Source of the DNA: Candidatus Tayloriibacteriota bacterium
Lineage (GTDB): Bacteria; Patescibacteriota; Minisyncoccia; Phycocordibacterales; PALSA-1337
Direction: 5' to 3'
Assembly: GCA_903857825.1 (NCBI GenBank)
Contig: CAIOGI010000001.1
Coordinates: 40,698 to 104,697 of the forward strand
DNA length: 64,000 nt
Shown: positions 1,154 through 32,064 of the stretch, piece by piece
Numbering within the stretch: the first letter of the stretch is position 1
Layout: each line of letters opens with the position of its first letter
The notes under the pieces: generated by a model
What the model was told of the DNA's origin: nothing
The model's input: only the letters and a program-made list of their open reading frames with translations
Database searches by the model: none
Translations under genes and position numbers: made by a program

Positions 1154-1942
1154 TTAATCAAGATTGAGTTCGATGGGACAATGATCTGAACCAATTACCG
1201 CGTTGAGAATATTGGCTTTTTTTACTTTTTGCACTAGGGCAGGGGAGATGAAAAAATAGTCAATTCTCCAACCAACATTTCTTTCTCTTGCGAAGGTTTT
1301 CATGTCCCACCATGTGTATGCGCCTACTTTTGTTGGATTTTGTTGTCTAAATATATCAAGGTATCCAGCTTGAATTACTTGATCAATCCACTCTCTTTCA
1401 ATAGGAAGGAATCCAGTATGATTCGAATTCTCCTTTGGTCGTGCCAAATCAATTTCATTATGTGCCGTGTTTACATCTCCACAGAATATCACTTCGTATC
1501 CTTTTTTTCTTTGCGCATTTATATATTTTAGGAATTGATCATAAAACCCCAGTTTATACTCTAATCGTTTAGGATCCTCAGCACCATTGGGAAAGTAGCA
1601 ATTAATCAGTACATACTTTACACCCATTAAATTCTTGTTTTCGTAGAATAGAGCTAAAAAGCGACCCTCTTTGTCATATTCCTCAATTCCTAGACCATAT
1701 TCTACCTTATCCGACTTCTCTTTAGCGTAAACAGCGACACCACTATAGCCCTTCTTTTCCTTAGAATGATCAAAATATGAATAATAGCCTAGTGGATTTC
1801 GTACACCTTCCTCTAATTGCTCTGGGTGCACCTTGGTCTCTTGATAACACATAAAGTCAGGAGACTTCTGCAAAAACCAATCAAATCCACCCTTTTTCAC
1901 ATTGGCGCGCAAGCCGTTTACGTTCCATGAGATTATGTTCAT
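1154..1942 (-). CDS. xthA: Exodeoxyribonuclease III / AP endonuclease (Xth family)
   Basis: MNIISWNVNGLRA, QETK, WWD..., and the C-terminal SDHCPIEL motif are hallmarks of EEP-fold ExoIII. Confidence 0.9.
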   Translation of the reverse strand: MNIISWNVNGLRANVKKGGFDWFLQKSPDFMCYQETKVHPEQLEEGVRNPLGYYSYFDHSKEKKGYSGVAVYAKEKSDKVEYGLGIEEYDKEGRFLALFYENKNLMGVKYVLINCYFPNGAEDPKRLEYKLGFYDQFLKYINAQRKKGYEVIFCGDVNTAHNEIDLARPKENSNHTGFLPIEREWIDQVIQAGYLDIFRQQNPTKVGAYTWWDMKTFARERNVGWRIDYFFISPALVQKVKKANILNAVIGSDHCPIELNLD

Positions 1943-1977: not shown

Positions 1978-4176
1978 TTATTCACTCTTCCTATGAAATT
2001 TTTTGTGGATTTTCTTTAATTCTGTATCAGTAACATGTGTATAAATCTGAGTTGTATTGATATTGGCATGGCCAAGAAGCATTTGCACTGAGCGCAGATC
2101 TGCACCATTTCTCAACAGGTCTGTCGCGAAGGAATTATGTGAAATAAAACCATCAGTAATAAAGTTTGAGTATTTATTAATGGTAAAATCAAATACCTCG
2201 GTTTTACCTTTAATATTTTCTATTTTTTTTATCTTTAACCACCGAATATGCGAATTCAGTTTAAGTAAATTCTCAAGTATATCAATCGATCCATCTTTTA
2301 AGCCATTTCCTCGCAAAACAGTTATGATTTTCATTAATAGATTAGCAGACAAACAGATATTTTTATATCTGGTTAGATTTTTTATATTACATTTATTTTG
2401 TATTTCATATACCAATCCCTTATTTTGCAACAATATTGGATATAATTTCCTTAGTATTTGCTGACATGGTATTTTTTCATCCTCAATAATTTCGGGATTT
2501 AATATCGTCTTTTGTTTAAGGGTTTGAATTAAAGACTTAAAGTTTCTCTGGTTTTTAAAGGTGGTTATATGAAGCACATAAATAGTATTGTCAATTATTT
2601 TTCCTTGTGGGAGCTTAACTTTTCTATCTCTTTTTAATAAAATAGAGTCAATATTAAGTATTAAAAATAAAGATTGAACATCTTTTAACAGGTCTTTGCT
2701 TGTTGAAAATACTTTTATAGTTCCATTATTGCCTTCCGCATCATAATATCCAGCAAGAAATGCGCTTATCTCTTCCTTGCTCGCCTTAAACAGACTCTCG
2801 GGAACACGCCTATATTTTGAGTATTGTGTAATACCAAGTTTTCTCAGTTTTCTTAATAACTTAACATCATAAATATATAAAGAATGTGATTTGCTTTCTT
2901 TATTTGGACCAATTATTGGCTTCCTACCAATTATTTTTTCTGCCAAATTTGCATAATATTGAATATGCTTTATGTCCTTATCATTGATAATAATTCCTCG
3001 CCTTCTTTCACTTAAGGTACCATCTCCTAAAATATATCCCGTCAACCTCCAAAAATCCTTGCCCTCACCATCTTTTTTGTTAAAAGAAAAATCTACATGT
3101 TTTATGCCTGCAACATAGTCTCCAACAGATAGATCCTGCATTTGTCTTTCAACAATCCCATTTGTATTTACTGTAAAAAATGTATGATATGGTGTAGCTA
3201 TAATTTCTCTGCCATCTGCCCACATGCTTGATAGATTCTCTGTCGAATGCTTTTTTTTGGCAATAACCTTACCTTTCATTATTTGGCCATTATTAAGGTC
3301 TAGACTCATTACCATGCTTTGCTTGGAATTATTCAATTTATTTGCAGAAAAAATCCCAGAGCTTGTAATAATCCTTGTGTCTGAGTGTAAGCAGTGGCGA
3401 ATAACGTGTGGCGTTACTTTCTTGGAAATACCACTATTTATGGCATACTGCTTGACTATTCTCTCAACTGTTCTTCTATCTAGTCTTAGCGAATCCTTTT
3501 TCTGAGCCATTTTCTCATTCTTCTTGCCTGTAATTTGCACAAAAAGTGCATCGTCCATATCATCTCTTTTATCTAAATATTTTTGTACAGCGTTTCTTGC
3601 ATCATCTGAAATAAATACCACACGAACCTTCTCACCCTTTCCTCTGACAGACATTTCATCTAATTTTAAGTTTATATCTCTAGGGAGGGCACATAACTCC
3701 GACACACGAAGACCTGTTGAAAAAAGTAGCTCTAGCATGGCTTTATCTCTCAAGCCCTTCAAATTGCTTGTGTCTGGGGCGTTAAGCAAACGAACAAGTT
3801 CTTCAATAGTTATCAGATCTAATGATCTTTCTGGTACTTTTGCTAGCTCTATTCTATCTGGAGATAGAGAAGTAATGCTCTGTCTAGCCAGATATTTGAG
3901 AAAGGCACGCAATGCTATCAAATAGTAGTTCTGTGTACGTTTCTTTAGGGTTGTTGGGGCCAGTCCTTTCTCATTTCTAGCCTCTTGTCTGTTAAGCCAA
4001 ATACGGAAATCGCGTACAACATTGTCAGTAATACCTTTTGGATCTTTTATCTTCGTATAATCTAAAAAACGGCTCAGGTAGCGATCATAATTACGCACAG
4101 TATTCAGGCTTCTACCTTTTTCTATTTCAGTATATTGAAGAAATTCGGTTTTTAGTGAAAAAAGATTTTGCGACAT
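1978..4176 (-). CDS. XerC/XerD-family tyrosine recombinase whose catalytic C-terminal domain is interrupted by a roughly 420-aa intein
   Basis: The N-extein has the typical Xer N-terminal region ([13 protein letters not shown]...) and [13 protein letters not shown] (the Arg I region). The sequence ...TPHVIRH is then split from [34 protein letters not shown], which carries the catalytic Tyr. Confidence 0.85.
2134..3393 (-). mobile_element. Intein (Cys1 ... His-Asn, with a +1 Ser) carrying a LAGLIDADG homing endonuclease, inserted directly after the catalytic RH of the recombinase
   Basis: It starts [13 protein letters not shown] and has block B TPYHT. Two LAGLIDADG-type motifs are present ([12 protein letters not shown] and [11 protein letters not shown]). 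It ends FISHN followed by S. Extein coordinates were worked out from residue counts. Confidence 0.8.
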
Positions 4177-4216
4177 GATTTAAGTATACAATGCCAATCT
4201 TTTTCACACCCCCTTG

Positions 4217-4246
4217 ACAAAAAACTAGGGTATGCTATGATATCAC
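4217..4246 (+). promoter_or_regulatory. Near-consensus sigma70-type promoter (TTGACA-N17-TATGAT) pointing towards rpsO
   Basis: Sequence ccTTGACAaaaaactagggtatgcTATGATat. Confidence 0.5.
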
Positions 4247-4460
4247 CAACGTGTCTGAGCTTACTGCTATTGTTTATACCTATTGGCAAGGTAGGCAATG
4301 GCAATCGAACACCGCACAAACAATGGCCCCACGTGCTAAATGCGAGAGCACAGGCCACAACAATGAAAGGGAATCGCCATGATCAGAGGCCCGCCCCAAC
4401 TAGTTCGCCCCGTATCCCAATTTCGCACAGCTATGTGGAAAGAAGAGGATGCGGGGCATT
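4247..4460 (+). ncRNA. Candidate structured non-coding RNA or a long structured rpsO leader. The segment is GC-rich and sits downstream of the consensus promoter. Its class is unassigned.
   Basis: About 210 nt, visibly GC-rich in an AT-rich genome. It has no RBS or plausible ORF. A complementary pair cgccccgtatcc / ggatgcggggc is present. A second promoter-like TTGCAA-N17-TAGTAT lies just upstream of rpsO. Confidence 0.3.
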
Positions 4461-4502
4461 TAATTTGCAAATTTTATACATTCATGCTAGTATATCCCAA
4501 TC

Positions 4503-4772
4503 ATGTTAACAACAAGACAGAAGACAAATATCATAAAAAACGTAGCAATACACGATAAAGATACTGGCTCTCCAGAGGTTCAAATTTCAATATTAACAAA
4601 GAGAATCGAAGAATTAGCTGGTCACTTGAAAAAGCATAAGAAAGACAATCACTCAAGACGAGGACTTCTAGCCATGGTAGCCGATAGACAGACTCACATG
4701 AACTATTTAAAGAAGAAGAGCACTAAGCGTTATAACAGTATCGCGAAGAAACTAGATATAAAGGCAAAGTAA
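4503..4772 (+). CDS. rpsO: 30S ribosomal protein S15
   Basis: GSPEVQISILTKRIEELAGHLKKHKKDNHSRRGLLAMV matches the S15 signature. Confidence 0.95.
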   Translation: MLTTRQKTNIIKNVAIHDKDTGSPEVQISILTKRIEELAGHLKKHKKDNHSRRGLLAMVADRQTHMNYLKKKSTKRYNSIAKKLDIKAK

Positions 4773-4865
4773 AATTGGACTCGCTTGCTTGCGCTCGGAA
4801 GCTCCTCTTTTTTTCACAAGTTCAAAAAAGTAGGACTTCCTCACCGCGTCGAGTCTCAATTTTAC
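4769..4865. repeat. Palindromic intergenic repeat element, copy A. Its termini are gtaaaattggactcg ... cgagtctcaattttac, and it overlaps the rpsO stop.
   Basis: The same element recurs at 36090-36188, with variants at 44676-44702 and 45180-45317. Confidence 0.65.
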
Positions 4866-4977
4866 ATACCCTAATCATTATATGAGTCCAATTTTGTTAT
4901 TAATGGTATACTTAGTTCAGTAAGTATTTTAATAATAGTAGGTTAAATTTTAATAATAAATAAGTAAATAATTTTAT

Positions 4978-5613
4978 ATGTCAGTAATTAAACATAAAGA
5001 ACAGCGTGTTGGAGTTTTTATAGATACTCAAAACATTTATCATAGTGCGAAAAATCTATATCATTCAAAGGTCAATTTTGGTCAAATAGTAAAAGATGCG
5101 GTAGGGGAGAGATCTCTTATCCGTGCAGTCGCTTATGTCATAACAACAGAGGCAGGTGACGAGAAAGCATTTTTTGAAGCACTCACAAAAATGGGCATAG
5201 AAACTAAAACAAAGGATCTTCAGATATTCGGTAGTGGAGCAAAGAAGGCAGACTGGGATGTGGGACTTGCAATAGATGCTGTGAAGCTAGCACCAAAACT
5301 AGATGCAGTCATTCTAGTAACGGGCGATGGAGACTTCGTACCACTTGTAGAATATTTGCAGACAAATGAGGGGTGTCAGGTAGAAGTTGTTTCCTTTGGT
5401 AAATCAACATCAACAAAACTACGTGAAGTAGTAGATGATTTCTTTGACCTTGATGAAAGTGTTTCTAAATATTTAATCGGTCATCAAAATAGATTTCAAG
5501 GATCAGGAAAGGGTAAGGCACCTATTCGCCAAGGCTTCAAGAAGCGAGGACCAAAAGATGCGACAGTTGGAAATGTTGCAGATGAAATAGCGGATTTGAG
5601 TGGGCAGGAGTAA
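4978..5613 (+). CDS. NYN/LabA-like domain protein (a predicted RNase-like PIN-related fold)
   Basis: VFIDTQNIY, DVGLAIDA and ILVTGDGDFVPLV are the LabA/NYN acidic motifs. Confidence 0.7.
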   Translation: MSVIKHKEQRVGVFIDTQNIYHSAKNLYHSKVNFGQIVKDAVGERSLIRAVAYVITTEAGDEKAFFEALTKMGIETKTKDLQIFGSGAKKADWDVGLAIDAVKLAPKLDAVILVTGDGDFVPLVEYLQTNEGCQVEVVSFGKSTSTKLREVVDDFFDLDESVSKYLIGHQNRFQGSGKGKAPIRQGFKKRGPKDATVGNVADEIADLSGQE

Positions 5614-5736: not shown

Positions 5737-6561
5737 ATGAATGAAATAAAGGATATTGCATTGTTTGAGGGAAAGGAGGTGAGAAAAGTTTGGCATAATG
5801 AAAAATGGTACTTTTGTGTTAATGACATTGTGCTTGTTCTTACAGAAACCGTTGATCCAGTTGATTATATAAAGAAAATTAGACAACGAGATGAAGAACT
5901 TGGCAAAGGGTGGGGACAAATTGTCACCCCCCTTTCAATGCAGACAAGAGGAGGAAAACAGATGATCAATTGTGCAAACTTAGAAGGTATATTCAGAATA
6001 ATTCAATCTATTCCGTCACCTAAGGCAGAACCTATTAGGTTATGGCTCGCTCGTGTAGGCACCGAAAGACTTGAAGAAATTCAAGACCCTGAACTCGCTA
6101 TGGATCGGGCAAAAGCTATTTATGAAAGAAAAGGATATCCGAAGGACTGGATAGACAAGAGAATGAGGGGAATAAATGTTCGTCATAGCCTAACAGACGA
6201 ATGGAAGAACAGAGGAGTAAAGAAGGGTATTGAATTTGCTATTCTTACTGACGAAATATATAAAGGCACTTTTGACATGACTGCACAGGAGTATAAAAAG
6301 CATAAGTCATTAAATAAGGAGAATAATCTCCGTGATCATATGAATGACATCGAACTCATATTGACTATGCTTGGAGAGGCTACAACAACGAAGTTAACGC
6401 AAGATAGAGATTCACGTGAATTTGATAAGTTACAAAAAGATGCGGAAGAAGGTGGGGAAGTGGCAGGAAAAACTAGGAAGGACATTGAAAGTAGGACGAA
6501 GAAGACGGTAATAGCTAAAGAAAATTATTTGCCGAGAACAAGAAAAAATCTAAACTCATAG
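5737..6561 (+). CDS. DinD-family (DNA-damage-inducible protein D) / Bro-N domain protein
   Basis: It has a Bro-N-like N-terminus (KVWHNEKWYFCVNDIV...). The central FAILTDEIYKGTFDMTAQEYKKHKSL...DHMNDIELIL aligns with E. coli DinD FAIFQNRGYQGLYGG...DHMGSTELAANL. Confidence 0.6.
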   Translation: MNEIKDIALFEGKEVRKVWHNEKWYFCVNDIVLVLTETVDPVDYIKKIRQRDEELGKGWGQIVTPLSMQTRGGKQMINCANLEGIFRIIQSIPSPKAEPIRLWLARVGTERLEEIQDPELAMDRAKAIYERKGYPKDWIDKRMRGINVRHSLTDEWKNRGVKKGIEFAILTDEIYKGTFDMTAQEYKKHKSLNKENNLRDHMNDIELILTMLGEATTTKLTQDRDSREFDKLQKDAEEGGEVAGKTRKDIESRTKKTVIAKENYLPRTRKNLNS

Positions 6562-6778: not shown

Positions 6779-8002
6779 GTGAACAATGAAACTATAGCAA
6801 AAAACAACTCAAATCCATTCAAAAAAGGCTTTCTATCTCATTTCAGCCTTGATTTTGACTTGTTTAAAATACAGGATTCAGATATACAGAGATTAGATAA
6901 TAAACTAAATTCCTTCGAAAAGATATTTCTGGACCCAAATATAGAAAAGACCCTAATAAGCAAGAATGAGTTACTTGCCTCTTTTGCAATATCAAAAGCA
7001 GAAAATTCTCAGCTCACATTAGAAGAAGCGGAAGATATCTATAAATTTGTTATAGAAAATAAAGATTTTGATTTTATAAGTAAAAAAATATCAAGTGGTA
7101 AAAAACTAGAAAAAAAAGACTATGAAAAGTTAGAATTCTTTAATATTGCTAGCACCTTTAGAGCTTTAAATGCAAATCCTTTTATGATTCAAGAACTGGA
7201 TGATAAATTGATTAGGAAAATCCATTTTGATATAACAAAAGGGCTAGATATTTTTGCTAAATATCTACCAGAATTTACTCTATATAAATCAGGAAACTGG
7301 CGTGATAATAATGAAATTCGTGTTGGAAAATATACTCCATCAGATTTCAAAGATATTCCAAATTCTATTTCTGATCTTATTTCATGGTTTAAAGATAATC
7401 AGTCCATAACAAATGTAGCTATATTTCATACTGCTCTATATGCAATACACCCTTTCAACAATGGGAATAAAAGAGTTTGTAGAATAATTGAGCATATTTT
7501 ATTAAAAATAATAGGGCTTAATAAGAATAATCTTTATAGTAATTCGTATTTTTATCATAAAGAAAAAACTAGATATTACAAGTATCTTTTAAGTTCACTA
7601 GAGAGAAGGAATCTTAATATTTTCTCATCTTTTATACTAGAGTCTATCGTCTTCTCTATTTTGGGAGTGATCAAAACTAGTCTAGAAATAAAAAGGCAAC
7701 AATACATTGCCCAGTCTGAACTTGATAAGGCAGTACAAAAAGCAATTAAAGGGCTTATTAAAAGAAGGGAATTGCAATTTAAAAACTTCTATAAAATAGT
7801 TAAAAACCAAATTTCCAAGCAAACATTCGTAAATTATCTAGAAAAAGCAGTAAGTGCTGGAATTCTTATTAAAAGAGATGCAGGCAAAGCAACATATTAT
7901 AGGTTAAATATAGAAACGGATGAGGAAAAGTTATTAGCGGAGTTACTTGAGGATATAAAAGGGAAGGTTGGGGTTATAGATGAGGATTTGAGGTTGGTGT
8001 AG
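6779..8002 (+). CDS. Fic/Doc-family protein with a non-canonical Fic motif (HPFNNGNKRVCR) and a C-terminal winged-helix-like region. The track start is a GTG.
   Basis: The HPFxxGNxR core is present. It deviates from canonical HPFx(D/E)GNGRxxR by having N at the D/E position and K in place of the second G. Confidence 0.65.
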   Translation: MNNETIAKNNSNPFKKGFLSHFSLDFDLFKIQDSDIQRLDNKLNSFEKIFLDPNIEKTLISKNELLASFAISKAENSQLTLEEAEDIYKFVIENKDFDFISKKISSGKKLEKKDYEKLEFFNIASTFRALNANPFMIQELDDKLIRKIHFDITKGLDIFAKYLPEFTLYKSGNWRDNNEIRVGKYTPSDFKDIPNSISDLISWFKDNQSITNVAIFHTALYAIHPFNNGNKRVCRIIEHILLKIIGLNKNNLYSNSYFYHKEKTRYYKYLLSSLERRNLNIFSSFILESIVFSILGVIKTSLEIKRQQYIAQSELDKAVQKAIKGLIKRRELQFKNFYKIVKNQISKQTFVNYLEKAVSAGILIKRDAGKATYYRLNIETDEEKLLAELLEDIKGKVGVIDEDLRLV

Positions 8003-10068: not shown

Positions 10069-10833
10069 TTATAGGTTTTCCTTTACAAAATCAACAGCAT
10101 ATCTAAACCTTTCTCCTAGTTTTTCTCTTTCACCAATAGCCACAAACGGCTTCATATCTGCAATAAATTCTTTTTCACTAAATTTATCTAATCTCTTATA
10201 AATTTCTTCTTTATTCTTCAAATCCAATCCGTAATATTTTAATTTCTCTTCTATCATAACACCATTAAAGACGGCCCCGAAACCAAGTAAGTAGGCCAAA
10301 TCATACAAATCCCTCCCTTTCTCTCTGGTCATGATTGCTCTTATTTTCTCAGAGAAAATTTCATTCATTGATAGATGATGAATATACGAATTAAAGATGA
10401 TAGGGAAATCACTTTTTATTGTAGATTTTGAAGGCTCTATTGGCTTTTCTCTAAAAGAAAAATCAAATTTTATAAAAACTTTATAATCTATAAAATCTGG
10501 CTTAACTGTAAGTAGATAGGTCTTACCAGAAATAGCCTCTCTTTCTTTAAATGAAAATCCTGAATTTTCTTTACAAATTAAAACAAAAAAATCTTTTATA
10601 AAGCCTTCAAACTCTTTATCTTGCATATCTACAGTAAAATCAAGATCTTCTGAAAATCTTGGGGCTCCAAAAATAATATGCACGGCTGTTCCTCCTTTAA
10701 AATAAACTTTTTCACAACCTTTCATAGAATATAATTTATCAAGACACAATAACTGTACATACTCTCGCAATACAATAGTCTCATTTGTCTTAAATTTCTT
10801 TGTTAGTTCATGTATTTGATCCTTTGTTATCAT
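10069..10833 (-). CDS. AbiEii/AbiGii-family nucleotidyltransferase toxin (type IV toxin-antitoxin / abortive infection)
   Basis: KGGTAVHIIFGAPRFSEDLDFTV is the AbiEii signature. Confidence 0.75.
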   Translation of the reverse strand: MITKDQIHELTKKFKTNETIVLREYVQLLCLDKLYSMKGCEKVYFKGGTAVHIIFGAPRFSEDLDFTVDMQDKEFEGFIKDFFVLICKENSGFSFKEREAISGKTYLLTVKPDFIDYKVFIKFDFSFREKPIEPSKSTIKSDFPIIFNSYIHHLSMNEIFSEKIRAIMTREKGRDLYDLAYLLGFGAVFNGVMIEEKLKYYGLDLKNKEEIYKRLDKFSEKEFIADMKPFVAIGEREKLGERFRYAVDFVKENL

Positions 10834-11450
10834 AGTATTTTATTAGTTTTTAATATTTCAATGATCTTATCTTTTACTATTCCTTTTTTTATATTATTTA
10901 CATATTCATCGAGTCTTTTCTTATCTATATTTGATAAATCATATTCGCTCATATCTATCTGTCTCTTTCCGTTTATAGACAAATATATCTGATCCAATAA
11001 TGCTTTTTCAGGAAGTGCAATGAGAAATCCATCCTTTTTCTCATAACCCCAGAATAAATCCTTATTAATATGAGAATAACTGTAGATATTGCCATCAATT
11101 TCTTTAATTTTTGTCTTTTTAACTGTTGCGCTAGTTATCTCAAAAGGGAATTGGGAAAGAATACCATGAAAATTCAAAGCTGATTCAAAAGAGATATATG
11201 ATGGTTCGTATAGGAAGTTTGCAATAAGAAAATTACTTGGCTTTTTACTTGGGATTATGTATTTACCCATTTCAAGTCTTTTTAAAATACCATTCATTAC
11301 AAGGCTATTTATCAAGTCGAAGGGGGCTTGATGTCTACTAATACCCAAAAGGTTTCGCAAGGTTTCACTGGGAATAATGCCAATATCTGATTGTAATATT
11401 GCTTCAGTTGCCTTTACTTTATTAAAGTTTTGATTATTCGATGATTCCAT
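10830..11450 (-). CDS. AbiEi-like antitoxin / transcriptional regulator (wHTH). Its stop overlaps the AbiEii start by 4 nt.
   Basis: It sits upstream of AbiEii and is translationally coupled to it (ATGA overlap). The N-terminal region ...LRNLLGISRHQAPFDLINSLVMNGILKRLEMGKY is HTH-like. Confidence 0.55.
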   Translation of the reverse strand: MESSNNQNFNKVKATEAILQSDIGIIPSETLRNLLGISRHQAPFDLINSLVMNGILKRLEMGKYIIPSKKPSNFLIANFLYEPSYISFESALNFHGILSQFPFEITSATVKKTKIKEIDGNIYSYSHINKDLFWGYEKKDGFLIALPEKALLDQIYLSINGKRQIDMSEYDLSNIDKKRLDEYVNNIKKGIVKDKIIEILKTNKIL

Positions 11451-24758: not shown

Positions 24759-26321
24759 ATGAGAATTAATTTTTATAAAAAATTCATTCCGGCAATACTC
24801 ATGATAACGCTTCTTGCCCAACCGCTATTCTTTTTGAAGCCAGCGAAAGCAAGCGCAATCCCCGTAGTTGATGCCGGGGTTATAGCACAATTGGTTATTG
24901 CAAATATTTCTCTAGGAACACTGGTGGGGCAGTCAACTGCAGCTAATCTAAAAACCTTTACACTTGACGGCCTCGCTTGGATGCTTGCAAAAATGATAGT
25001 GCAACAAATAACAGTTAGTACTGTAAACTGGATCAACTCTGGCTTTGAAGGAAGCCCTGCCTTTGTAGAAAATCCTGGTTCATTTTTTCTTGATGTGGCT
25101 GATCAAGCAACAGGTCAGTTCATTACTGGAGGCCTTTTAGCGGATATGTGTTCACCATTTAGCATAGATATAAAAATAGCTCTTTCTTTTAAGTACAGAC
25201 CATACACACCAAAGAGGTACGCTTGTACAATAAGTACAATAATGAGAAATATGGTTAATGCAGGAAAAAATGCATCTATAAATGGGTTTACTGCTGGAGA
25301 TTTTAAACAGGGAGGGTGGCCGGCTTTTGCCTCACTGACAACAGAGCCACAAAATAATATATATGGTTCATATCTGCAAGCAGAAAGCGATCTATCATTC
25401 CGTGTAGCCTCGATACAAGGACAAAAGAAAGACGAGCTAGGAGCTGGAAGAGGATTCCTTTCAAAAGAGGTGTGTACAGAAAAAACTGTTGAAAGTTCTG
25501 ATTTTGAGGGAAATGTATCTAGTCAGCTAGTCAAAGACTGCAAGGTACAAACCCCTGGTTCAGTGATCGCTGGCACACTGGATAATCAACTCGCATCAGC
25601 CGGTCACTCACTTGAGCTTGCAGACTCAATAAATGAAATTGTTGGTGCTCTTTTTGCACAATTGGTAACAAAAGTTCTTCAGGGTGGACTTGGTGGATCA
25701 AGTGGTGGCGGTGCGGGTGATTCAGAATCATATATGAATCAAGTTCGTGATGAAATAAAGGGAAGTTCAGAACAAGTAGAATCAATAAAGGTAAAGCTCC
25801 TTGATCAAATAAAAACAATGACAATGCCTTCAAGTGCATACATGGATGCAAAAACATCATCACTAAACCTATTCCTTAATATAAAAGGCACATTTGATAA
25901 GGCTAGAAGCTGTTATGCAGCAAAAATTATTTATCTAACTTCATTACCAACTACGCCACACAATTCTGGATTAATTCAGCAGTATCGAAATCAAATAAGT
26001 ACAATTGATTCGACCGTAGCATCAACAATCACTCCACTAGTCACAAGATTACAGGCTGAAAAAGATGCGGCGTACAGAACGTCCTCCAATCTTACGCGTA
26101 TTGAAAATACTATAAGGGCGGCTGCAACATTAAATGATTTGATTGAACCTAGTCAAACCCTGTCCCAAATGGAGACGATAACAGGAGCAAATATGACAAT
26201 CAAAACACAGGAAGCAAAAAATGAGTATGAACAATTACGAAATGATGTTGCGCCTGACTTAAATCAGACCGCCAGATCTATGCTAAACAACTGCCTAGCA
26301 CAACCAGGTCCTTCTATATAA
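24759..26321 (+). CDS. Secreted protein (signal peptide) with a Gly-rich linker and a C-terminal coiled-coil. It is a component of the T4SS-like cluster.
   Basis: The signal peptide is MRINFYKKFIPAILMITLLAQPLFFLKPAKASA. No enzymatic motif. Confidence 0.45.
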   Translation: MRINFYKKFIPAILMITLLAQPLFFLKPAKASAIPVVDAGVIAQLVIANISLGTLVGQSTAANLKTFTLDGLAWMLAKMIVQQITVSTVNWINSGFEGSPAFVENPGSFFLDVADQATGQFITGGLLADMCSPFSIDIKIALSFKYRPYTPKRYACTISTIMRNMVNAGKNASINGFTAGDFKQGGWPAFASLTTEPQNNIYGSYLQAESDLSFRVASIQGQKKDELGAGRGFLSKEVCTEKTVESSDFEGNVSSQLVKDCKVQTPGSVIAGTLDNQLASAGHSLELADSINEIVGALFAQLVTKVLQGGLGGSSGGGAGDSESYMNQVRDEIKGSSEQVESIKVKLLDQIKTMTMPSSAYMDAKTSSLNLFLNIKGTFDKARSCYAAKIIYLTSLPTTPHNSGLIQQYRNQISTIDSTVASTITPLVTRLQAEKDAAYRTSSNLTRIENTIRAAATLNDLIEPSQTLSQMETITGANMTIKTQEAKNEYEQLRNDVAPDLNQTARSMLNNCLAQPGPSI

Positions 26322-28330
26322 TGAAATTAATGAAAAAATTCTTTGCTACAATTCTAGTAATAATAATGGTCCTAACTGTAATGGGAGTAGTTACTGTTCC
26401 ACAAACAGCGAATGCAGCTTGTGCAAATCTTCTAAGTTTTAATTTCGGCGAATGTGTTACAGAGGGTACGGCTTGGGTGGGAAATATTCTATTAACCATG
26501 ATGAGTTATTTATTAACAGTTACTGGAACAATTCTAAGCTTTTCGATAAAAATAACACTAAATATAAAAAATATATACGACGGAACTCCAGCAATAAATA
26601 ATGTCTGGGTAATTGTGAGAAACTTGTCGAGCATGTTTATCATATTTATGCTTATGTATAGTTCGATACAAACTATTTTAGGAATAGGAAGTGCAAATGT
26701 TAAAACACTTATTGGAAAAATAATTATTGCTGGTCTACTAATAAACTTTAGTCTTTTCTTTACCAAAGTAGCCATAGATGCTTCAAATCTTATATCAATG
26801 CAATTTTATAGAGCAATAGCGCCACAGTCTGCGTCTCAAAATCTAAGCGGCTGGTCTAATGAATACTACGATGGGGGTCTATCAGACGTATTCATGTCTG
26901 CGCTAAAAATTCAAAGCATCTATCATCCAAGCAATACTGAAATAAAAAATGCTGGAAGCAAGGGGGAGGGAACAGTATGGATGTCAATAATAATAGCGAC
27001 TTATGGCGGAGTACTACTCATGTTGTTTGCAGCAATAAGTTTCTTGGGTGCTTCTGTAGCATTTACAATACGAACTGGTATGCTACTTCTATTAATGGCA
27101 TTTTCTCCTATATATTTCGCTGGAATGATATTCCCAAAAATTAAAAGTGATATTTCTGATAAATGGCTTAAATACCTTACTAATCAGCTTATTTTTATGC
27201 CTGTTTATCTCCTATTGATGTATGTGGCACTAACGATTGTAAGTGACAAAGGTTTTATGTCGTTCATAAGTAGTGGGAATCTCCAAGACAATGCTAAGGG
27301 CTCAGTTGTTATACTTATCGGTATTTGTATTCAGTATTTTATTGCAATATTCTTTATAAACGTACCTCTTATAGGAGCACTGCAGTCCGGGGCTATGGGA
27401 GCTGGTTTTGCAGAGAGCATGACAAAAGGTCTGAAAGATAGAATATATAAACAACCAGGGGCAGTGGCTTCATTTGCGGCTCAACACGGTGTTGGTCGTG
27501 GGGCTAGAGCTATTTCAGAGAGGCTGGCAACAAGCAATTTTGCCGCAAGGAATCCTTCATTGGCAATAATGGCTGATAAGGGATTAGGGAAGATTTCTGG
27601 AAACGCATTTGGTGGAAAAAAGGGTGGATATGATAAGAGGGTGGCTGAGTATGTTAAAGAAAGATCTGAATATGCAACAAAAAGATATGGACTGACGACA
27701 GACAAGAAACAAGACATTGAACAAGCAACTGAAAAAGAATTGAAGGGTAAAATGGCAGAATGGGCTGAAAATAAAAATCAAAAAATAAAGGAGTCAGAGA
27801 ACAATGCCAGTGTAGCAAAAGATTTACTATTAAACTTAGAAAAAGAAAACTCTAGAATAGCAGGTGAAGCCGCCTCACTTCAGAAAGAATATAGCGATGC
27901 AAAAGTCTTGTCAGGCGAAGATAGTCCACTAACAATAAAAATAAAGGATAGATTAGATGAAATAAATAAAATATTAAAAGAAAAGACTAAACAGATTGAA
28001 AATTCACGTCAAGCTATTAAAAATACTGAGAAAGAATTTGAAAAAGCAAACTTTGAAGCAAGCGAGCTAGCTAAGACTAGACATGAAGCCAGTCAAAAAA
28101 TAGAAATTGAGAAGAGGATAAAGAAGGAAACACGAGAGGGTGTGTCCGAAAAATTTGCTGAAAACCTTGATCAGGATTGGAATCCATTTACAAGAGAGGC
28201 AAGCAAGAAAGCTGCGAATGCAATTAGAGCTGGTAAACTCAAATCAGAACAGGAAATTAATTATGAAAAGGCATTAAAAGACTTAACTAGTGGGTTTGTA
28301 AAGAAAGAGGATGATGATGAGAAGAAATAA
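26321..28330 (+). CDS. Polytopic inner-membrane protein resembling VirB6/TrbL, with a long C-terminal coiled-coil tail
   Basis: A signal peptide, about six transmembrane helices, then a K/E-rich coiled-coil of roughly 200 aa. It lies in the same operon as a VirB4-like ATPase. Confidence 0.5.
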   Translation: MKLMKKFFATILVIIMVLTVMGVVTVPQTANAACANLLSFNFGECVTEGTAWVGNILLTMMSYLLTVTGTILSFSIKITLNIKNIYDGTPAINNVWVIVRNLSSMFIIFMLMYSSIQTILGIGSANVKTLIGKIIIAGLLINFSLFFTKVAIDASNLISMQFYRAIAPQSASQNLSGWSNEYYDGGLSDVFMSALKIQSIYHPSNTEIKNAGSKGEGTVWMSIIIATYGGVLLMLFAAISFLGASVAFTIRTGMLLLLMAFSPIYFAGMIFPKIKSDISDKWLKYLTNQLIFMPVYLLLMYVALTIVSDKGFMSFISSGNLQDNAKGSVVILIGICIQYFIAIFFINVPLIGALQSGAMGAGFAESMTKGLKDRIYKQPGAVASFAAQHGVGRGARAISERLATSNFAARNPSLAIMADKGLGKISGNAFGGKKGGYDKRVAEYVKERSEYATKRYGLTTDKKQDIEQATEKELKGKMAEWAENKNQKIKESENNASVAKDLLLNLEKENSRIAGEAASLQKEYSDAKVLSGEDSPLTIKIKDRLDEINKILKEKTKQIENSRQAIKNTEKEFEKANFEASELAKTRHEASQKIEIEKRIKKETREGVSEKFAENLDQDWNPFTREASKKAANAIRAGKLKSEQEINYEKALKDLTSGFVKKEDDDEKK

Positions 28331-28346
28331 GATAAAAATATAAAAT

Positions 28347-29117
28347 ATGGATATACAAGAAATATTAAAAGATAGATACAAGGTTTTACCACCAGATATG
28401 CAAAAAGTTATCTCTGGTTCTGATTACTATTTGAAACTAACTGAAATATGTAAAAAATATAATCTACATGTTGACCAAAGCGGGGCACTGCAAACAGAAA
28501 CCATATTGGTAATGCTAGGACTTGAATCCGCAAATAGCTATAGTTCTAATATTCAAAATGCTCTTGAGATATCTAAAGAAAGTGCAGACCGTATTGCAAA
28601 GGATATTAGCGATTCAATATTTGTTGAAGTGCGTGACTCGCTAAAGAAGATAGATGAAATGCGTAATTTACCTGAAAATACCCATAGTTCAGTGGATATA
28701 CTCATAGATAGGGGAATCCCATTAAATTCAGTACCCAAAAATCCTATAGCTCCACCGATAATCACCCCCTACACCAAAGCCCCACAAACAATACCAGATC
28801 AAAAAACATTAAGGGAAGCGACGTCAGAACAAGGACCTACTCAAATTCCAATAAGTAAAACAATATCAAATATAGAAAGAGTCGGGCAGTTTAAAGTAGA
28901 GAAAGACCCATTATCCTCATCTCCTCAATATAAAGAAGACAATATAAATAGGGAAGCACTACTTAAACAAATTGAGGATGCACCTGTTCCATTAGTAGAC
29001 CATTTACTTGCAAATCCTATTATCAATTCTAATAAAACTCAGACTGAGAAAGAAGTTCCAAATAAAAGTGTTGATAATAAATCATATTCATTAGATCCGT
29101 ATAGAGAACAGATATAA
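28347..29117 (+). CDS. Hypothetical soluble protein
   Basis: An ORF within the operon, with 16-bp spacing to the preceding gene. Confidence 0.4.
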   Translation: MDIQEILKDRYKVLPPDMQKVISGSDYYLKLTEICKKYNLHVDQSGALQTETILVMLGLESANSYSSNIQNALEISKESADRIAKDISDSIFVEVRDSLKKIDEMRNLPENTHSSVDILIDRGIPLNSVPKNPIAPPIITPYTKAPQTIPDQKTLREATSEQGPTQIPISKTISNIERVGQFKVEKDPLSSSPQYKEDNINREALLKQIEDAPVPLVDHLLANPIINSNKTQTEKEVPNKSVDNKSYSLDPYREQI

Positions 29118-29138
29118 TAAGTATGGTAAAATAAAAGA

Positions 29139-29567
29139 ATGCAATATCAAGTTCCACAATTTATTGAAGTTGAGGATAAAATATTTGAAAAAATAACACT
29201 AAAGCAATTTATTTATCTTGCTGGAGGTGCTGGATTATCTTTTCTTATATACAAAATTGCAGGATCATTGATAATAGCGGCAATACCTATACTCATAGTC
29301 CTATCATTTTCAATAGCATTAGCTTGGTATAGGCTATATAGTCGTTTTCCTTTCATAGAAGTTGTTGAATGGATGTTCAAATATTTTACATCTTCTAGAT
29401 TATACATATGGAAGAAGGTAGATAAAAAACCCTCAGCGAATCCTGTCAAAGAAGTAAAGGAATATGCATCAATACTAGTGCCCAAAATTTCAGACAGCAA
29501 ATTAAAAGACCTCACATGGAGTTTGGATATTAAAGATAGTGTGTATAGTAATAAAAACCAAAATTAA
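29139..29567 (+). CDS. Small two-transmembrane membrane protein, possibly VirB3/PrgI-like
   Basis: Two adjacent hydrophobic helices. It is located just upstream of the VirB4-like ATPase. Confidence 0.4.
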   Translation: MQYQVPQFIEVEDKIFEKITLKQFIYLAGGAGLSFLIYKIAGSLIIAAIPILIVLSFSIALAWYRLYSRFPFIEVVEWMFKYFTSSRLYIWKKVDKKPSANPVKEVKEYASILVPKISDSKLKDLTWSLDIKDSVYSNKNQN

Positions 29568-29569
29568 AT

Positions 29570-30202
29570 ATGGCACAATCAACAAAAACCACACAAGACT
29601 TTGTACCAATACAAGAAATACGAGATGGAATCGTCGTTCTTAAAGATGGAACCATGCGTTCAATTGTATTGGCTTCTTCGTTAAACTTTGCATTAAAATC
29701 ATCCGATGAACAAAATGCCATAATTTCTCAATTCCAAAATTTCCTGAATTCTCTTGATTTTTCAGTGCAGATATTCATACAATCAAAAAAACTAGATATA
29801 AGACCATATTTGGGGCTATTAGAAGACAGGTACAAGGATCAAGTTACTGAACTGATGAAAATACAGACCAGAGAGTATATTGAATTCATAAGAACGTTTG
29901 TAGAAAATTCTAGCATTATGACAAAGAGTTTTTTTGTTGTCGTCCCATATAGTCCAGTGAGTATTTCTACATCCAATAATCCTATTAATAAATTCATGAA
30001 AAAAGAAGGGGAGGAAAAGGTATTGGCAAACGAGAAGTTCGAAGAATACAGAAGCCAACTAGAACAAAGAACGGGTGTTGTGGAACAGGGCTTGGTTCGA
30101 TGTGGTATACGCGTTGCAGAACTTGGTACAGAGGAGGTTGTAGAATTATATTATAAGATATTCAATCCTGGAGAAACTGAGAAGCCTATTCAGATAAACT
30201 AG
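29570..30202 (+). CDS. Hypothetical protein of the T4SS-like cluster
   Basis: An ORF tightly spaced with its neighbours. Confidence 0.4.
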   Translation: MAQSTKTTQDFVPIQEIRDGIVVLKDGTMRSIVLASSLNFALKSSDEQNAIISQFQNFLNSLDFSVQIFIQSKKLDIRPYLGLLEDRYKDQVTELMKIQTREYIEFIRTFVENSSIMTKSFFVVVPYSPVSISTSNNPINKFMKKEGEEKVLANEKFEEYRSQLEQRTGVVEQGLVRCGIRVAELGTEEVVELYYKIFNPGETEKPIQIN

Positions 30203-30231
30203 CCTTAAAACTGATTAAATAAATAATAAAT

Positions 30232-32064
30232 ATGAGTATATTTTCAAAATTATTTGCAAAAAAAGAAGAATCTCCAATTGTTTCTCTGATGCCACAGGAA
30301 ATATATGAGGCTGGAGTGCTTGAACTAAAAGATGTCATTGCTCCATCTGCATTAAAAATAACACCAAAAGAAATAAACCTAGGCGAGAAAATGGCTAGAA
30401 CGTTTTTTGTCATATCATATCCTAGATTTTTAACAGAAAGTTGGTTTGCTCCTATTATTAATCTAGACAAAGTTTTTAATATTTCAATTTTCATTCATCC
30501 AATAGACACAGCAAAGATACTTAGACACTTTCAAAAAAAGGTTGCTGAGGTTCAAAGTCAGATATCCACAAGAGAGGATAAGGGTTTGGTTCGTGATCCA
30601 ATGCTTGATACAGCATACCAGGACCTTGAATCATTACGCGATAACCTAATGCAGGCACAGGAAAAGCTTTTTGATGTTGGTGTATATATTACAATCTTTG
30701 GTGACTCGACTTCTGACCTAGACAAGATAGAGTCTGAGATGAAGTCCATACTCGAATCAAAGCTTGTTTATGTAAAACCAGCACTATTTCAACAAGAAAG
30801 TGGCTATAAGAGTGTTCTACCAATAGGGGATGATCAGTTAATGGTTCATTCGAAGCTGAATTCCTCACCACTTTCAAGTCTTTTCCCATTTGTTTCCTTT
30901 GACCTTACGTCTGACAAGGGTATATTGTACGGTATAAATCGACACAACTCATCACTTGTGCTGTTTGATAGATTCCTACTAGAAAACTACAATTCTGTCA
31001 CATTTGCAAAGGCAGGATCTGGAAAATCATACTGTACGAAGCTAGAGATACTTAGAACTTTGATGTTCGATACTGAGGTTATTGTTATTGATCCAGAAAA
31101 AGAATATGAGTACATGGCAGAAGCTACTGGTGGCAAATATTTTAATATTTCTTTAAATTCAGAACATCATATCAATCCTTTTGATCTTCCGATTCCAAGA
31201 GAAGATGAATCTGCTGCAGATATATTACGTTCAAACATTATAAACCTTGTAGGATTGTTCAGAATAATGCTTGGAGGTCTTACTCAGGAAGAAGATGCAA
31301 TAATAGACAGAGCCATTACAGAAACCTATGCTCTTAAAGATATTTCTCCTGAATCAGACTTTAGAAATGTTGAGCCCCCAATGCTTTCTGACTTTGAACT
31401 AGTACTAGCCGGAATGGAGGGTGCGGAATCGCTGGTGGAAAGATTGACGAAGTATACAAAGGGAACATGGTCTGGTTTCATAAACCGTCCATCAAATGTT
31501 GATATAAATAAGAAATTCGTCGTTTTCTCTCTTAGGGACATGGAGGATGAGTTGAAGCCTGTAGCGATGTATATAGTCACACATTATATATGGAATGCTA
31601 TTAGAAAAAATCTCCGAAAACGTCTTTTGGTCATAGATGAGGCTTGGTGGATGATGAAATCAGAAGATACGGCCTCATTCTTGCTTGGACTAGCAAAAAG
31701 AGGTAGAAAATACTATCTTGGACTTGCAACAATAACACAAGACGTTGATGATTTCTTGAAATCACCATATGGTCTTCCAATTATTACTAACTCATCTATT
31801 CAAATTCTATTAAAACAATCTCCTTCTTCTATTGATAATGTTCAGAGGACTTTTAATCTAACGGATGAAGAAAAGTATCTGCTTCTAGAATCAGATGTTG
31901 GAGAGGGTATATTCTTTGTCGGATTGAAGCATGTGGCATTAAAAGTGGTTGCTTCGTACACAGAAGATCAGATAATCACCACAAACCCTGCACAGGTTTT
32001 AGCTATTAAACAAGCAAAGCAGGATCTGGAAGCTTCTCAGCAGGGTGGTGCTGGGGTACAATAA
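30232..32064 (+). CDS. VirB4/TraC/TrbE-family conjugation/type IV secretion ATPase
   Basis: N-domain ...TFFVISYPRF.... Walker A FAKAGSGKSY, DPEKEY and Walker B LLVIDEAWWMM. Confidence 0.8.
   Translation: MSIFSKLFAKKEESPIVSLMPQEIYEAGVLELKDVIAPSALKITPKEINLGEKMARTFFVISYPRFLTESWFAPIINLDKVFNISIFIHPIDTAKILRHFQKKVAEVQSQISTREDKGLVRDPMLDTAYQDLESLRDNLMQAQEKLFDVGVYITIFGDSTSDLDKIESEMKSILESKLVYVKPALFQQESGYKSVLPIGDDQLMVHSKLNSSPLSSLFPFVSFDLTSDKGILYGINRHNSSLVLFDRFLLENYNSVTFAKAGSGKSYCTKLEILRTLMFDTEVIVIDPEKEYEYMAEATGGKYFNISLNSEHHINPFDLPIPREDESAADILRSNIINLVGLFRIMLGGLTQEEDAIIDRAITETYALKDISPESDFRNVEPPMLSDFELVLAGMEGAESLVERLTKYTKGTWSGFINRPSNVDINKKFVVFSLRDMEDELKPVAMYIVTHYIWNAIRKNLRKRLLVIDEAWWMMKSEDTASFLLGLAKRGRKYYLGLATITQDVDDFLKSPYGLPIITNSSIQILLKQSPSSIDNVQRTFNLTDEEKYLLLESDVGEGIFFVGLKHVALKVVASYTEDQIITTNPAQVLAIKQAKQDLEASQQGGAGVQ

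Follow-up and report, generated by a model that had tools for sequence, protein, structure and literature searches.

How can a site-specific recombinase function when 420 additional codons interrupt its active-site motif, and what do these codons encode? This question is raised by a gene for a tyrosine recombinase of the Xer type in a 64,000-nucleotide stretch of contig CAIOGI010000001.1 (assembly GCA_903857825.1, Candidatus Tayloriibacteriota bacterium), which we refer to as the window in the following. Inteins favour the active-site motifs of enzymes for DNA replication, repair and recombination. We consider it highly probable (roughly 0.9) that the insertion is a class-1 intein of full length, housing a LAGLIDADG homing endonuclease and residing in the chromosomal Xer-type recombinase of a member of the Patescibacteria (Paceibacteria-like), and that it splices canonically and homes.

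The precursor and its intein

The gene is a long open reading frame (ORF) at positions 1978-4176 of the reverse strand. In the ORF list, it starts with ATG and continues in an uninterrupted frame for 732 amino acids (aa) plus stop. A preliminary description of this DNA had interpreted it as a Xer-type recombinase split by an insertion of about 420 aa, which is borne out by the ORF list, by Pfam and by the exact coordinates of the insert (precursor residues 262-681, 420 aa; positions 2134-3393, reverse strand). The insert begins with CLHSD... at aa 262 and closes with ...GFISHN at aa 681; it is preceded by ...TPHVIRH and followed by SFATDLL..., and the insertion point lies between H261 and Ser+1 (S682) of the HxxRH/SFAT box (here and below, the slash after RH marks this point). 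The GC content of the intein DNA is 0.30, compared with 0.38 in both exteins. The precursor is organized as follows:

1978-4176, reverse strand: complete precursor, Xer-type tyrosine recombinase with intein, 732 aa plus stop (ORF list; Pfam Phage_int_SAM_1, Phage_integrase twice, Intein_splicing, LAGLIDADG_3)
3394-4176, reverse strand: N-extein, aa 1-261, SAM-like DNA-binding domain and first part of the catalytic domain (residue mapping; alignment with XerA 4a8e and XerD 1a0p)
3706-3708, 3628-3630, 3406-3408 and 3397-3399, reverse strand: catalytic residues of the N-extein, in this order Arg I (R157), Lys (K183), His II (H257) and Arg II (R260) (4a8e/1a0p alignment)
3064-3393, reverse strand: N-terminal splicing (Hint) part, intein aa 1-110 (Pfam; beta-strand region aa 7-97 in the structural model)
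3391-3393, 3193-3195 and 3184-3186, reverse strand: Cys1 and the block B residues T67 and H70 of the Hint N-part
2524-3063, reverse strand: LAGLIDADG homing-endonuclease core, intein aa 111-290 (Pfam LAGLIDADG_3; model; Foldseek matches to PI-PfuI, PI-SceI and I-DmoI)
3022-3024 and 2734-2736, reverse strand: endonuclease catalytic residues D124 (motif 1) and E220 (motif 2)
2254-2523, reverse strand: intein aa 291-380, helical, after the endonuclease core and before the C-terminal splicing strands (helices 311-379; predicted local distance difference test, pLDDT, above 90)
2134-2253, reverse strand: C-terminal splicing part, intein aa 381-420, with D402 (2188-2190), H419 (2137-2139) and N420 (2134-2136) (residue conservation)
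1978-2133, reverse strand: C-extein, aa 682-732 plus stop, with Ser+1 (2131-2133), His III (H703, 2068-2070) and the nucleophile Tyr (Y712, 2041-2043) (4a8e/1a0p alignment, residue mapping)

The Pfam family Intein_splicing (PF14890) matches aa 281-681 at 1.3e-22 and 80.7 bits (curated cut-off 35.8), and LAGLIDADG_3 (PF14528) matches two stretches inside the intein at 1.2e-12. The recombinase itself is recognized as Phage_integrase (3.6e-37), in two stretches with one on each side of the insert, and by its SAM-like N-terminal domain Phage_int_SAM_1 (1.9e-12). All class-1 residues are present, namely Cys1, block B T67-P-Y-H70, block F D402, H419-N420 and Ser+1, and the two LAGLIDADG motifs read GYILGD124G and LAGYYDAE220G, with D124 and E220 as their acidic residues. 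Residue mapping thereby recovers each of the hallmarks listed in the preliminary description (Cys start, block B TPYHT, two LAGLIDADG motifs, His-Asn end, +1 Ser), and the Hint domain that it had named as a check is confirmed by the Intein_splicing match, with which the predicted fold and its Foldseek matches agree. Likewise, homology to intein-free Xer proteins ends and restarts precisely at the junction residues Cys1, His-Asn and Ser+1. The site had been described as lying directly after the catalytic Arg-His; its position between H261 and S682 holds, but only R260 belongs to the canonical catalytic set. H261 is conserved yet lies outside this set, and the insertion is found one residue past Arg II.

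An AlphaFold2 model of the intein, built from an alignment of 18 sequences, reaches a pLDDT of 91.9 and a predicted template modelling score of 0.90. It comprises a beta-rich N-terminal part (aa 7-97), two alpha-beta-beta-alpha-beta-beta-alpha half-domains (approximately aa 112-288), a five-helix module (aa 311-379) and C-terminal strands (aa 383-419). The helical region at aa 291-380 has no Pfam match of its own, and in the model it probably represents an accessory DNA-binding or stirrup-like module. In a Foldseek search against the PDB, the best match is TliVMA (7qss; 5.2e-26, TM-score 0.65), followed by PI-PfuI (1dq3; 6.5e-23), by PhoVMA (7qst), PI-TkoII (2cw7) and PI-SceI (1vde), and then by the free LAGLIDADG enzymes I-DmoI and I-Tsp061I; by sequence, PI-PfuI is the closest solved relative (4e-8, PDB search). 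The archaeal LAGLIDADG inteins TliVMA/PhoVMA, PI-PfuI and PI-TkoII as well as PI-SceI share the entire architecture (Hint N-part, two-motif core, helical module, Hint C-part) and the class-1 residues (Cys1, TxxH, block F Asp, His-Asn, nucleophilic +1). They are the best fold matches, with TM-scores of 0.56-0.66 and E-values down to 5e-26, but are only 11-20% identical and reside in other hosts, namely V-ATPase, ribonucleotide reductase and DNA polymerase.

The intein separates the catalytic residues of the recombinase into R157, K183, H257 and R260 in the N-extein and H703 and Y712 in the C-extein. With its active site divided into R/K/H/R and H/Y, the precursor should be catalytically dead. 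The gene would be translated as a 732-aa precursor, in which splicing would start with an N-S acyl shift at Cys1. In the subsequent transesterification, the hydroxyl group of Ser+1 would attack, assisted by T67 and H70 of block B and D402 of block F; N420 would then cyclize with the help of H419, and an O-N shift would leave a normal peptide bond in ...TPHVIRH-SFATDLL.... The products would be an active 312-aa recombinase and a free 420-aa intein. The released endonuclease would cut an intein-less xer allele at the sequence coding for HVIRH/SFAT, and repair from the intein-bearing copy would insert the 1260-bp element and, along with it, part of the extein sequence on its flanks, i.e. homing would take place. 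Mechanistically, this is the textbook course for a LAGLIDADG intein; the novelty lies in the host protein and the site.

Empty alleles, distribution and mobility

A search with the spliced extein covered 5.8 billion proteins. The 120 best matches listed include more than 100 clusters of approximately 310-316 aa that have no intein domains and are 80-95% identical to the spliced extein. The best intein-free orthologue, P0121 (locus L001, on a 728,797-bp contig), shares 95% of its residues and approximately 80% of its DNA sequence with the window allele; in the same NYN-rpsO-xer-xth gene order, its DNA lacks exactly 1260 bp (420 codons) at the junction, and the same exact gap is found in two further loci, L085 and L086. 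The intein-less junction DNA of L001 or L085 reads ...CCCCACGTTATTCGTCAC/AGCTTCGCAACTGATCTC.... An intein-free allele in close relatives, named in the preliminary description as a way of checking the insertion, therefore exists, with up to 95% extein identity and a clean gap. The window allele is also present in an independent ENA assembly (P0216). Since more than 100 of the closest orthologues do without it, the Xer intein is dispensable.

The complete arrangement is nonetheless widespread. With the full-length precursor as a query, at least 120 clusters were listed (257 at E<=1e-5), consisting of proteins of 705-795 aa with the same four domains. The named carriers are Kaiserbacteria, Nomurabacteria, Brennerbacteria, Saccharibacteria, Kazan, Parcubacteria and 'Patescibacteria group', and IMG automatically labels some of them 'site-specific recombinase XerD/intein/homing endonuclease'. 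Among GTDB species, each represented by one genome, the full-length intein was detected in approximately 65, mostly Patescibacteria of many classes. The closed Roizmanbacteria genome CP066689.1 (L070) is one of the carriers. Across 121 aligned sequences (homologues 41-76% identical), the insertion point is identical; C1, H70, D402, H419, N420 and D124 are each present in 121 of 121, as are the G/Y/D/A/G positions around the LAGLIDADG acidic residues. At position 220, 115 sequences have E and 6 have D; the +1 residue is either Ser (109) or Cys (12), and the block B position is occupied by T or S (85/36).

We also searched exhaustively with the intein alone over 1.84 billion cluster representatives. 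This search yielded 28 representatives at E<1e-30, after which the scores fall to at most 119 bits, for inteins in other hosts. Wherever the host part or a junction could be examined, the 28 are tyrosine recombinases with an HxxRH/C...HN/S(F/Y)A junction, of which some fragments show one side. The nearest non-Xer relative in this representative search is an archaeal RadA intein (P0266) with 30% identity, and judged by sequence, the Xer inteins form a family of their own. Members of the same family with the HxxRH/C...HN/S junction are further found in six recombinases without the SAM-like N-terminal domain and with non-Xer C-exteins (P0256, P0257, P0260, P0262, L068 and L069), the latter beginning with SFAINWIK, SFAVQFIQ or SYVMRGIK. 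This suggests that the endonuclease may be able to invade paralogous recombinases or integrases.

Several intein contigs carry odd NCBI labels (L024, L026, L028, L029, L032, L033, L047, L066 and L069, labelled as Nevskiaceae, Chloroflexi, Gammaproteobacteria, Pseudomonadales or Desulfobacterales). We rejected a correspondingly wider host range, as both their exteins and their inteins group with sequences of the Microgenomates type, of the archaeal XerA type or from outside Xer; these contigs are likely mis-binned or mislabelled metagenome-assembled genomes.

In the extein tree, more than 100 intein-minus alleles surround two isolated intein-plus tips, one formed by the window and L005 and the other by P0001. 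Mean pairwise identities are 0.54 for the exteins and 0.41 for the inteins (Pearson correlation 0.55), and in 2.7% of the pairs the inteins are much more alike than the exteins, for instance P0076 and P0068 with 0.74 and 0.50, respectively. Between the window and L005, the ratio of non-synonymous to synonymous substitution rates (dN/dS) is approximately 0.12 for the whole intein, 0.11 for its endonuclease part and 0.12 for its splicing part, values that are rough because dS is near or beyond saturation; both parts appear to be under purifying selection.

The most telling case is a sister lineage in which the intein-plus allele P0001 (locus L004) and the intein-minus allele P0206 (locus L085) differ in a single extein residue. 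Their upstream flanks show one mismatch in 2039 nucleotides (nt), but 31 mismatches, 30 of them synonymous, accumulate within 548 nt around the insertion point (-416 to +132 nt). They are densest beside the insertion: the 126 nt immediately 5' of it contain 15 of them, and the 132 nt on its 3' side contain 14 (Fisher p 1.7e-20 for the clustering). The two empty alleles L085 and L086 are identical over the flanking tract apart from one mismatch. This pattern is what would be expected from the co-conversion of flanking markers in a recent homing event. The donor of the L004 tract was not found: when the window allele and that of L005 are compared at the 31 variant positions, they side 10/15 and 16/9, respectively, with no clear preference for L004 or L085.

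The adjoining xth allele of L085 (L085 2727-2948, compared with L004 4136-4921) has only about 50% protein identity to the xth of L004 and L086, and the opposite side of the L085 locus is identical to L004 over 2.4 kb despite this divergence. With a divergent xth on one side and L004-like sequence on the other, the xer locus is a recombination mosaic in that population.

The host gene and competing explanations

The conceptually spliced extein has 312 aa and aligns end to end and without a gap across the junction with Pyrococcus abyssi XerA and E. coli XerD, a continuity that had been proposed as a check in the preliminary description. It carries the R-K-H-R-H-Y residues, the HxxRH(S/A)FAT...LLGH...Y signature and the two-domain layout of a SAM-like N-terminal and a catalytic C-terminal domain. 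In the PDB, it matches XerA (4a8e; 6e-40, 140.6 bits) and XerD (1a0p; 1.6e-39, 139.2 bits) as well as the Thermoplasma XerA 5hxy, and is thus about as far from archaeal XerA as it is from bacterial XerD. To our knowledge, none of the characterized Xer proteins carries an intein. The near-equal scores fit a separate Xer subgroup of candidate phyla, and a Xer-related 'Cand' subgroup in such phyla is recognized in passages of a published classification (PMC8138268).

The immediate neighbours of the gene are:

1154-1942, reverse strand: xth, exonuclease III-like (Pfam Exo_endo_phos, 6.5e-29; same neighbour in L001, L004 and L086)
4503-5613, forward strand: rpsO (S15, 4503-4772) and an NYN-domain gene (4978-5613) (Pfam; order kept beside the intein-free L001 and L085 and the intein-bearing L004)

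The xth-xer-rpsO-NYN synteny is common to the window, L001 (728-kb contig), L004, L085 and L086, and since the same neighbours recur in intein-free and intein-bearing relatives, the context of the xer gene is a stable housekeeping one. The same 64-kb window encodes PNPase, PolA, UvrD, a class A penicillin-binding protein (PBP1) and a type IV pilus ATPase. The host gene is a chromosomal housekeeping locus outside any mobile element. Within the window, a phmmer search of the six-frame translation with the extein found no second tyrosine recombinase, a hidden Markov model of the family found no second intein of this kind, and intein domains are absent from ten large ORFs, among them PolA, UvrD and PNPase. 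It is plausible that chromosome-dimer resolution depends on splicing, as the preliminary description had stated, on the assumption that this is the sole Xer of the genome.

One might object that the host is the integrase of a mobile element instead of a chromosome-dimer resolvase, in which case the intein would affect the mobility of that element. Genes of an accessory kind (Bro-N, Fic, AbiEii) do lie within 2-7 kb, the same intein family occurs in the tyrosine recombinases without SAM-like domain and with non-Xer C-exteins described above, and no dif site turned up, although no dif search was made. Yet the gene stands between xth and rpsO-NYN in all five loci, its best structural relatives are XerA and XerD, its orthologues of 80-95% identity are abundant and of uniform length, and the 'Cand' subgroup described in passages of PMC8138268 offers it a place among the Xer-related proteins; we therefore regard an integrase as unlikely.

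A second possibility concerns the role of the intein, which might have been domesticated as a post-translational switch on Xer, splicing only under certain conditions (redox, via Cys1, or the DNA substrate). Its location in the active-site motif, which must render the precursor inactive, would suit such a switch, and so would its retention across many classes of Patescibacteria, with an intein tree that broadly tracks host taxonomy. There are also precedents: the RecA/RadA inteins of Mycobacterium tuberculosis RecA and Pyrococcus horikoshii RadA likewise occupy a conserved catalytic motif of a DNA-recombination enzyme and keep it inactive until splicing, although their host is a strand-exchange ATPase and not a site-specific tyrosine recombinase. 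Conditional splicing is documented for RadA, RecA and DnaB inteins (e.g. PMC5238726, PMC6195587), for RecA/RadA by experiment (PMC5238726). In engineered split-intein recombinases, recombinase activity similarly depends on splicing (phiC31 integrase with Npu/Ssp DnaE trans-splicing; PMC6868429), but these are synthetic trans-splicing mini-inteins without endonuclease in a serine integrase, whereas the Xer intein is natural, acts in cis, bears an endonuclease and resides in a tyrosine recombinase. Against a switch speaks that more than 100 of the closest orthologues dispense with the intein, that invariant endonuclease residues under purifying selection meet the needs of a mobile element and not those of a switch, and that a presence/absence polymorphism with a flanking conversion tract fits an ongoing invasion. 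We consider domestication quite improbable.

Equally small is the chance that the intein is a relic with functional splicing and a dead endonuclease, inherited vertically and occasionally deleted with precision. The correlation between intein and extein identities (Pearson 0.55) would be expected in this case, as would an intein tree that broadly follows the host groups and the fact that L005, which has the nearest intein to that of the window, also has the nearest extein among the intein-plus alleles. A dead endonuclease is, however, hard to reconcile with the conservation of both LAGLIDADG acidic positions and their surrounding G/Y/D/A/G residues in 121 sequences, with an endonuclease-domain dN/dS of approximately 0.11, with the 2.7% of pairs whose inteins are clearly closer than their exteins (P0076/P0068) and with the clustered synonymous tract of the L004/L085 polymorphism.

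That there is no intein at all has a negligible probability. The insert would then be a domain of an ordinary kind, or an error of assembly or reading frame would have fused a recombinase gene with that of a stand-alone LAGLIDADG protein. Nothing beyond the a priori possibility speaks for this (the drop in GC from 0.38 to 0.30 indicates foreign origin, which is equally expected of an intein). Against it, the frame is single and unbroken, the boundaries coincide exactly with Hint blocks A, B, F and G, the insert measures exactly 1260 bp against the empty allele, the architecture recurs in approximately 65 GTDB species representatives and, across several sequence sources, in at least 120 independent clusters, and the same allele occurs on an independent ENA contig.

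A canonically splicing and homing intein in a chromosomal Xer gene thus remains our preferred explanation, and several points weigh against it. The activities ascribed to intein and host, from splicing to DNA cleavage and recombination, are predictions, and dS is near or beyond saturation in the comparison between the window and L005. The nearest intein-free allele to that of the window's organism, P0121, is not near-isogenic (95% aa, approximately 80% DNA identity). In the L004/L085 pair, the tract has a left edge at approximately -416 nt, but its right edge is masked by the divergent xth allele of L085 and is not definable because this allele is only about 50% identical; given the missing edge, ordinary mosaic recombination could have carried the intein without endonuclease-driven homing. 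Finally, the absence of a further Xer applies to the 64-kb window and not to the whole genome.

The surroundings of the gene show some further peculiarities. The xer-rpsO spacer (4177-4502, 326 bp) is unusually rich in GC (0.46 compared with 0.357 for the window), aligns weakly with its counterpart in L001 and is only about 65 bp long in L004; Rfam yielded no match for it up to E<=1, and with its poor conservation, we dropped the idea that it encodes an RNA. Relative to the synteny of L001, the genes for a Bro-N protein (5737-6561) and a Fic/DOC protein (6779-8002) are an insertion, and a second one consists of an AbiEii toxin gene (10069-10833) overlapped by an upstream ORF (10830-11450), probably for its antitoxin. 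Further away, a VirB4/TraG-like P-loop ATPase (30232-32064) follows large ORFs without Pfam matches (24759-26321 and 26321-28330), and the region 24759-32064 is possibly a Patescibacteria type IV secretion or conjugation-like cluster.

Archaeal relatives and wider meaning

The intein family extends to DPANN archaea. Nine GTDB loci have XerA-type exteins, eight of which are labelled archaeal (Nanoarchaeota, Pacearchaeota, Woesearchaeota, Iainarchaeum or 'archaeon') and one mislabelled Chloroflexi. Compared with the window, the exteins of the archaeal loci are 35-42% and their inteins 39-46% identical. The extein of L034 is XerA-like, scoring 171.6 and 159.6 bits against two XerA structures and 103.4 bits against XerD, and a homologue of this type of gene with 59% identity (P0391) is found on contigs of 84-140 kb, approximately 4-5 kb from TFE-alpha and aTrm56 (the archaeal tRNA methyltransferase Trm56). 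Beside TFE-alpha and Trm56, the archaeal XerA-intein contig L088 also encodes a free-standing LAGLIDADG_3 protein of 194 aa (L088 16034-16618).

In archaeal-bacterial pairs, the mean identity is 0.375 for the exteins and 0.402 for the inteins; the inteins are at least as similar as the exteins in 72% of these pairs, compared with 0.6% of the bacterial pairs. In a neighbour-joining tree without support values, the archaeal inteins form two adjacent groups among Parcubacteria-type inteins, and the non-Xer bacterial L068 falls among them. These comparisons favour horizontal movement of the intein between bacteria of the candidate phyla radiation (CPR) and DPANN archaea. We rejected dating this transfer from identities, as intein identity plateaus at approximately 0.38-0.40 in all deep comparisons; given this plateau and a tree without support values, neither its direction nor its timing is established.

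Full-text searches of the literature found neither Xer nor any other tyrosine recombinase described as an intein host, and all matches to 'recombinase intein' concern RecA or RadA. No such intein appears in passages of PMC7685451, PMC5498576, PMC13245101, PMC11270868, PMC4760082, PMC8371274 and PMC8138268; the main-text passages of the 2015 intein survey mention only RecA/RadA-type 'recombinases' (PMC4760082), and inteins go unmentioned in the corresponding parts of reviews of archaeal tyrosine recombinases and of the global family classification (PMC8138268). The remark in the preliminary description that inteins are not commonly reported in Xer recombinases therefore holds for the published record but not for the genomes, as hundreds of Patescibacteria and some DPANN archaea carry one. 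The sequences have been public for years and are in part automatically annotated as such.

Somewhat short of even odds, and hence tentatively, we would go further and regard these inteins as a family undescribed in the literature ('Xer-a') that targets the HxxRH/S(F/Y)A site, universally conserved in tyrosine recombinases, is actively homing in natural populations of Patescibacteria, has crossed into the XerA of DPANN archaea, and makes the dimer resolvase of these reduced genomes dependent on splicing and possibly gated by it; the gating is pure speculation. If true, 'Xer-a' would serve to trace the exchange of DNA between the ultra-small symbionts of the two groups.

The Xer intein adds the site-specific tyrosine recombinases (Xer/XerA) to the classes of intein hosts, a class absent from the survey mentioned above, as far as its passages go (PMC4760082). 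As a compact and highly conserved intein that tolerates an RH/SF junction, it is potentially useful as a tool, and the predicted recognition sequence of its endonuclease is present in most Xer genes. Its most valuable aspects are the cross-domain distribution and the natural homing polymorphism: the occurrence of one allele in CPR bacteria as well as in DPANN archaea is a hint that genes flow between the two, and the coexistence of intein-plus and intein-minus alleles with a conversion tract provides a natural system to study homing in uncultivated bacteria. In the carriers themselves, the host protein probably resolves the chromosome dimers of a minimal genome, and their cell division would then hinge on protein splicing.

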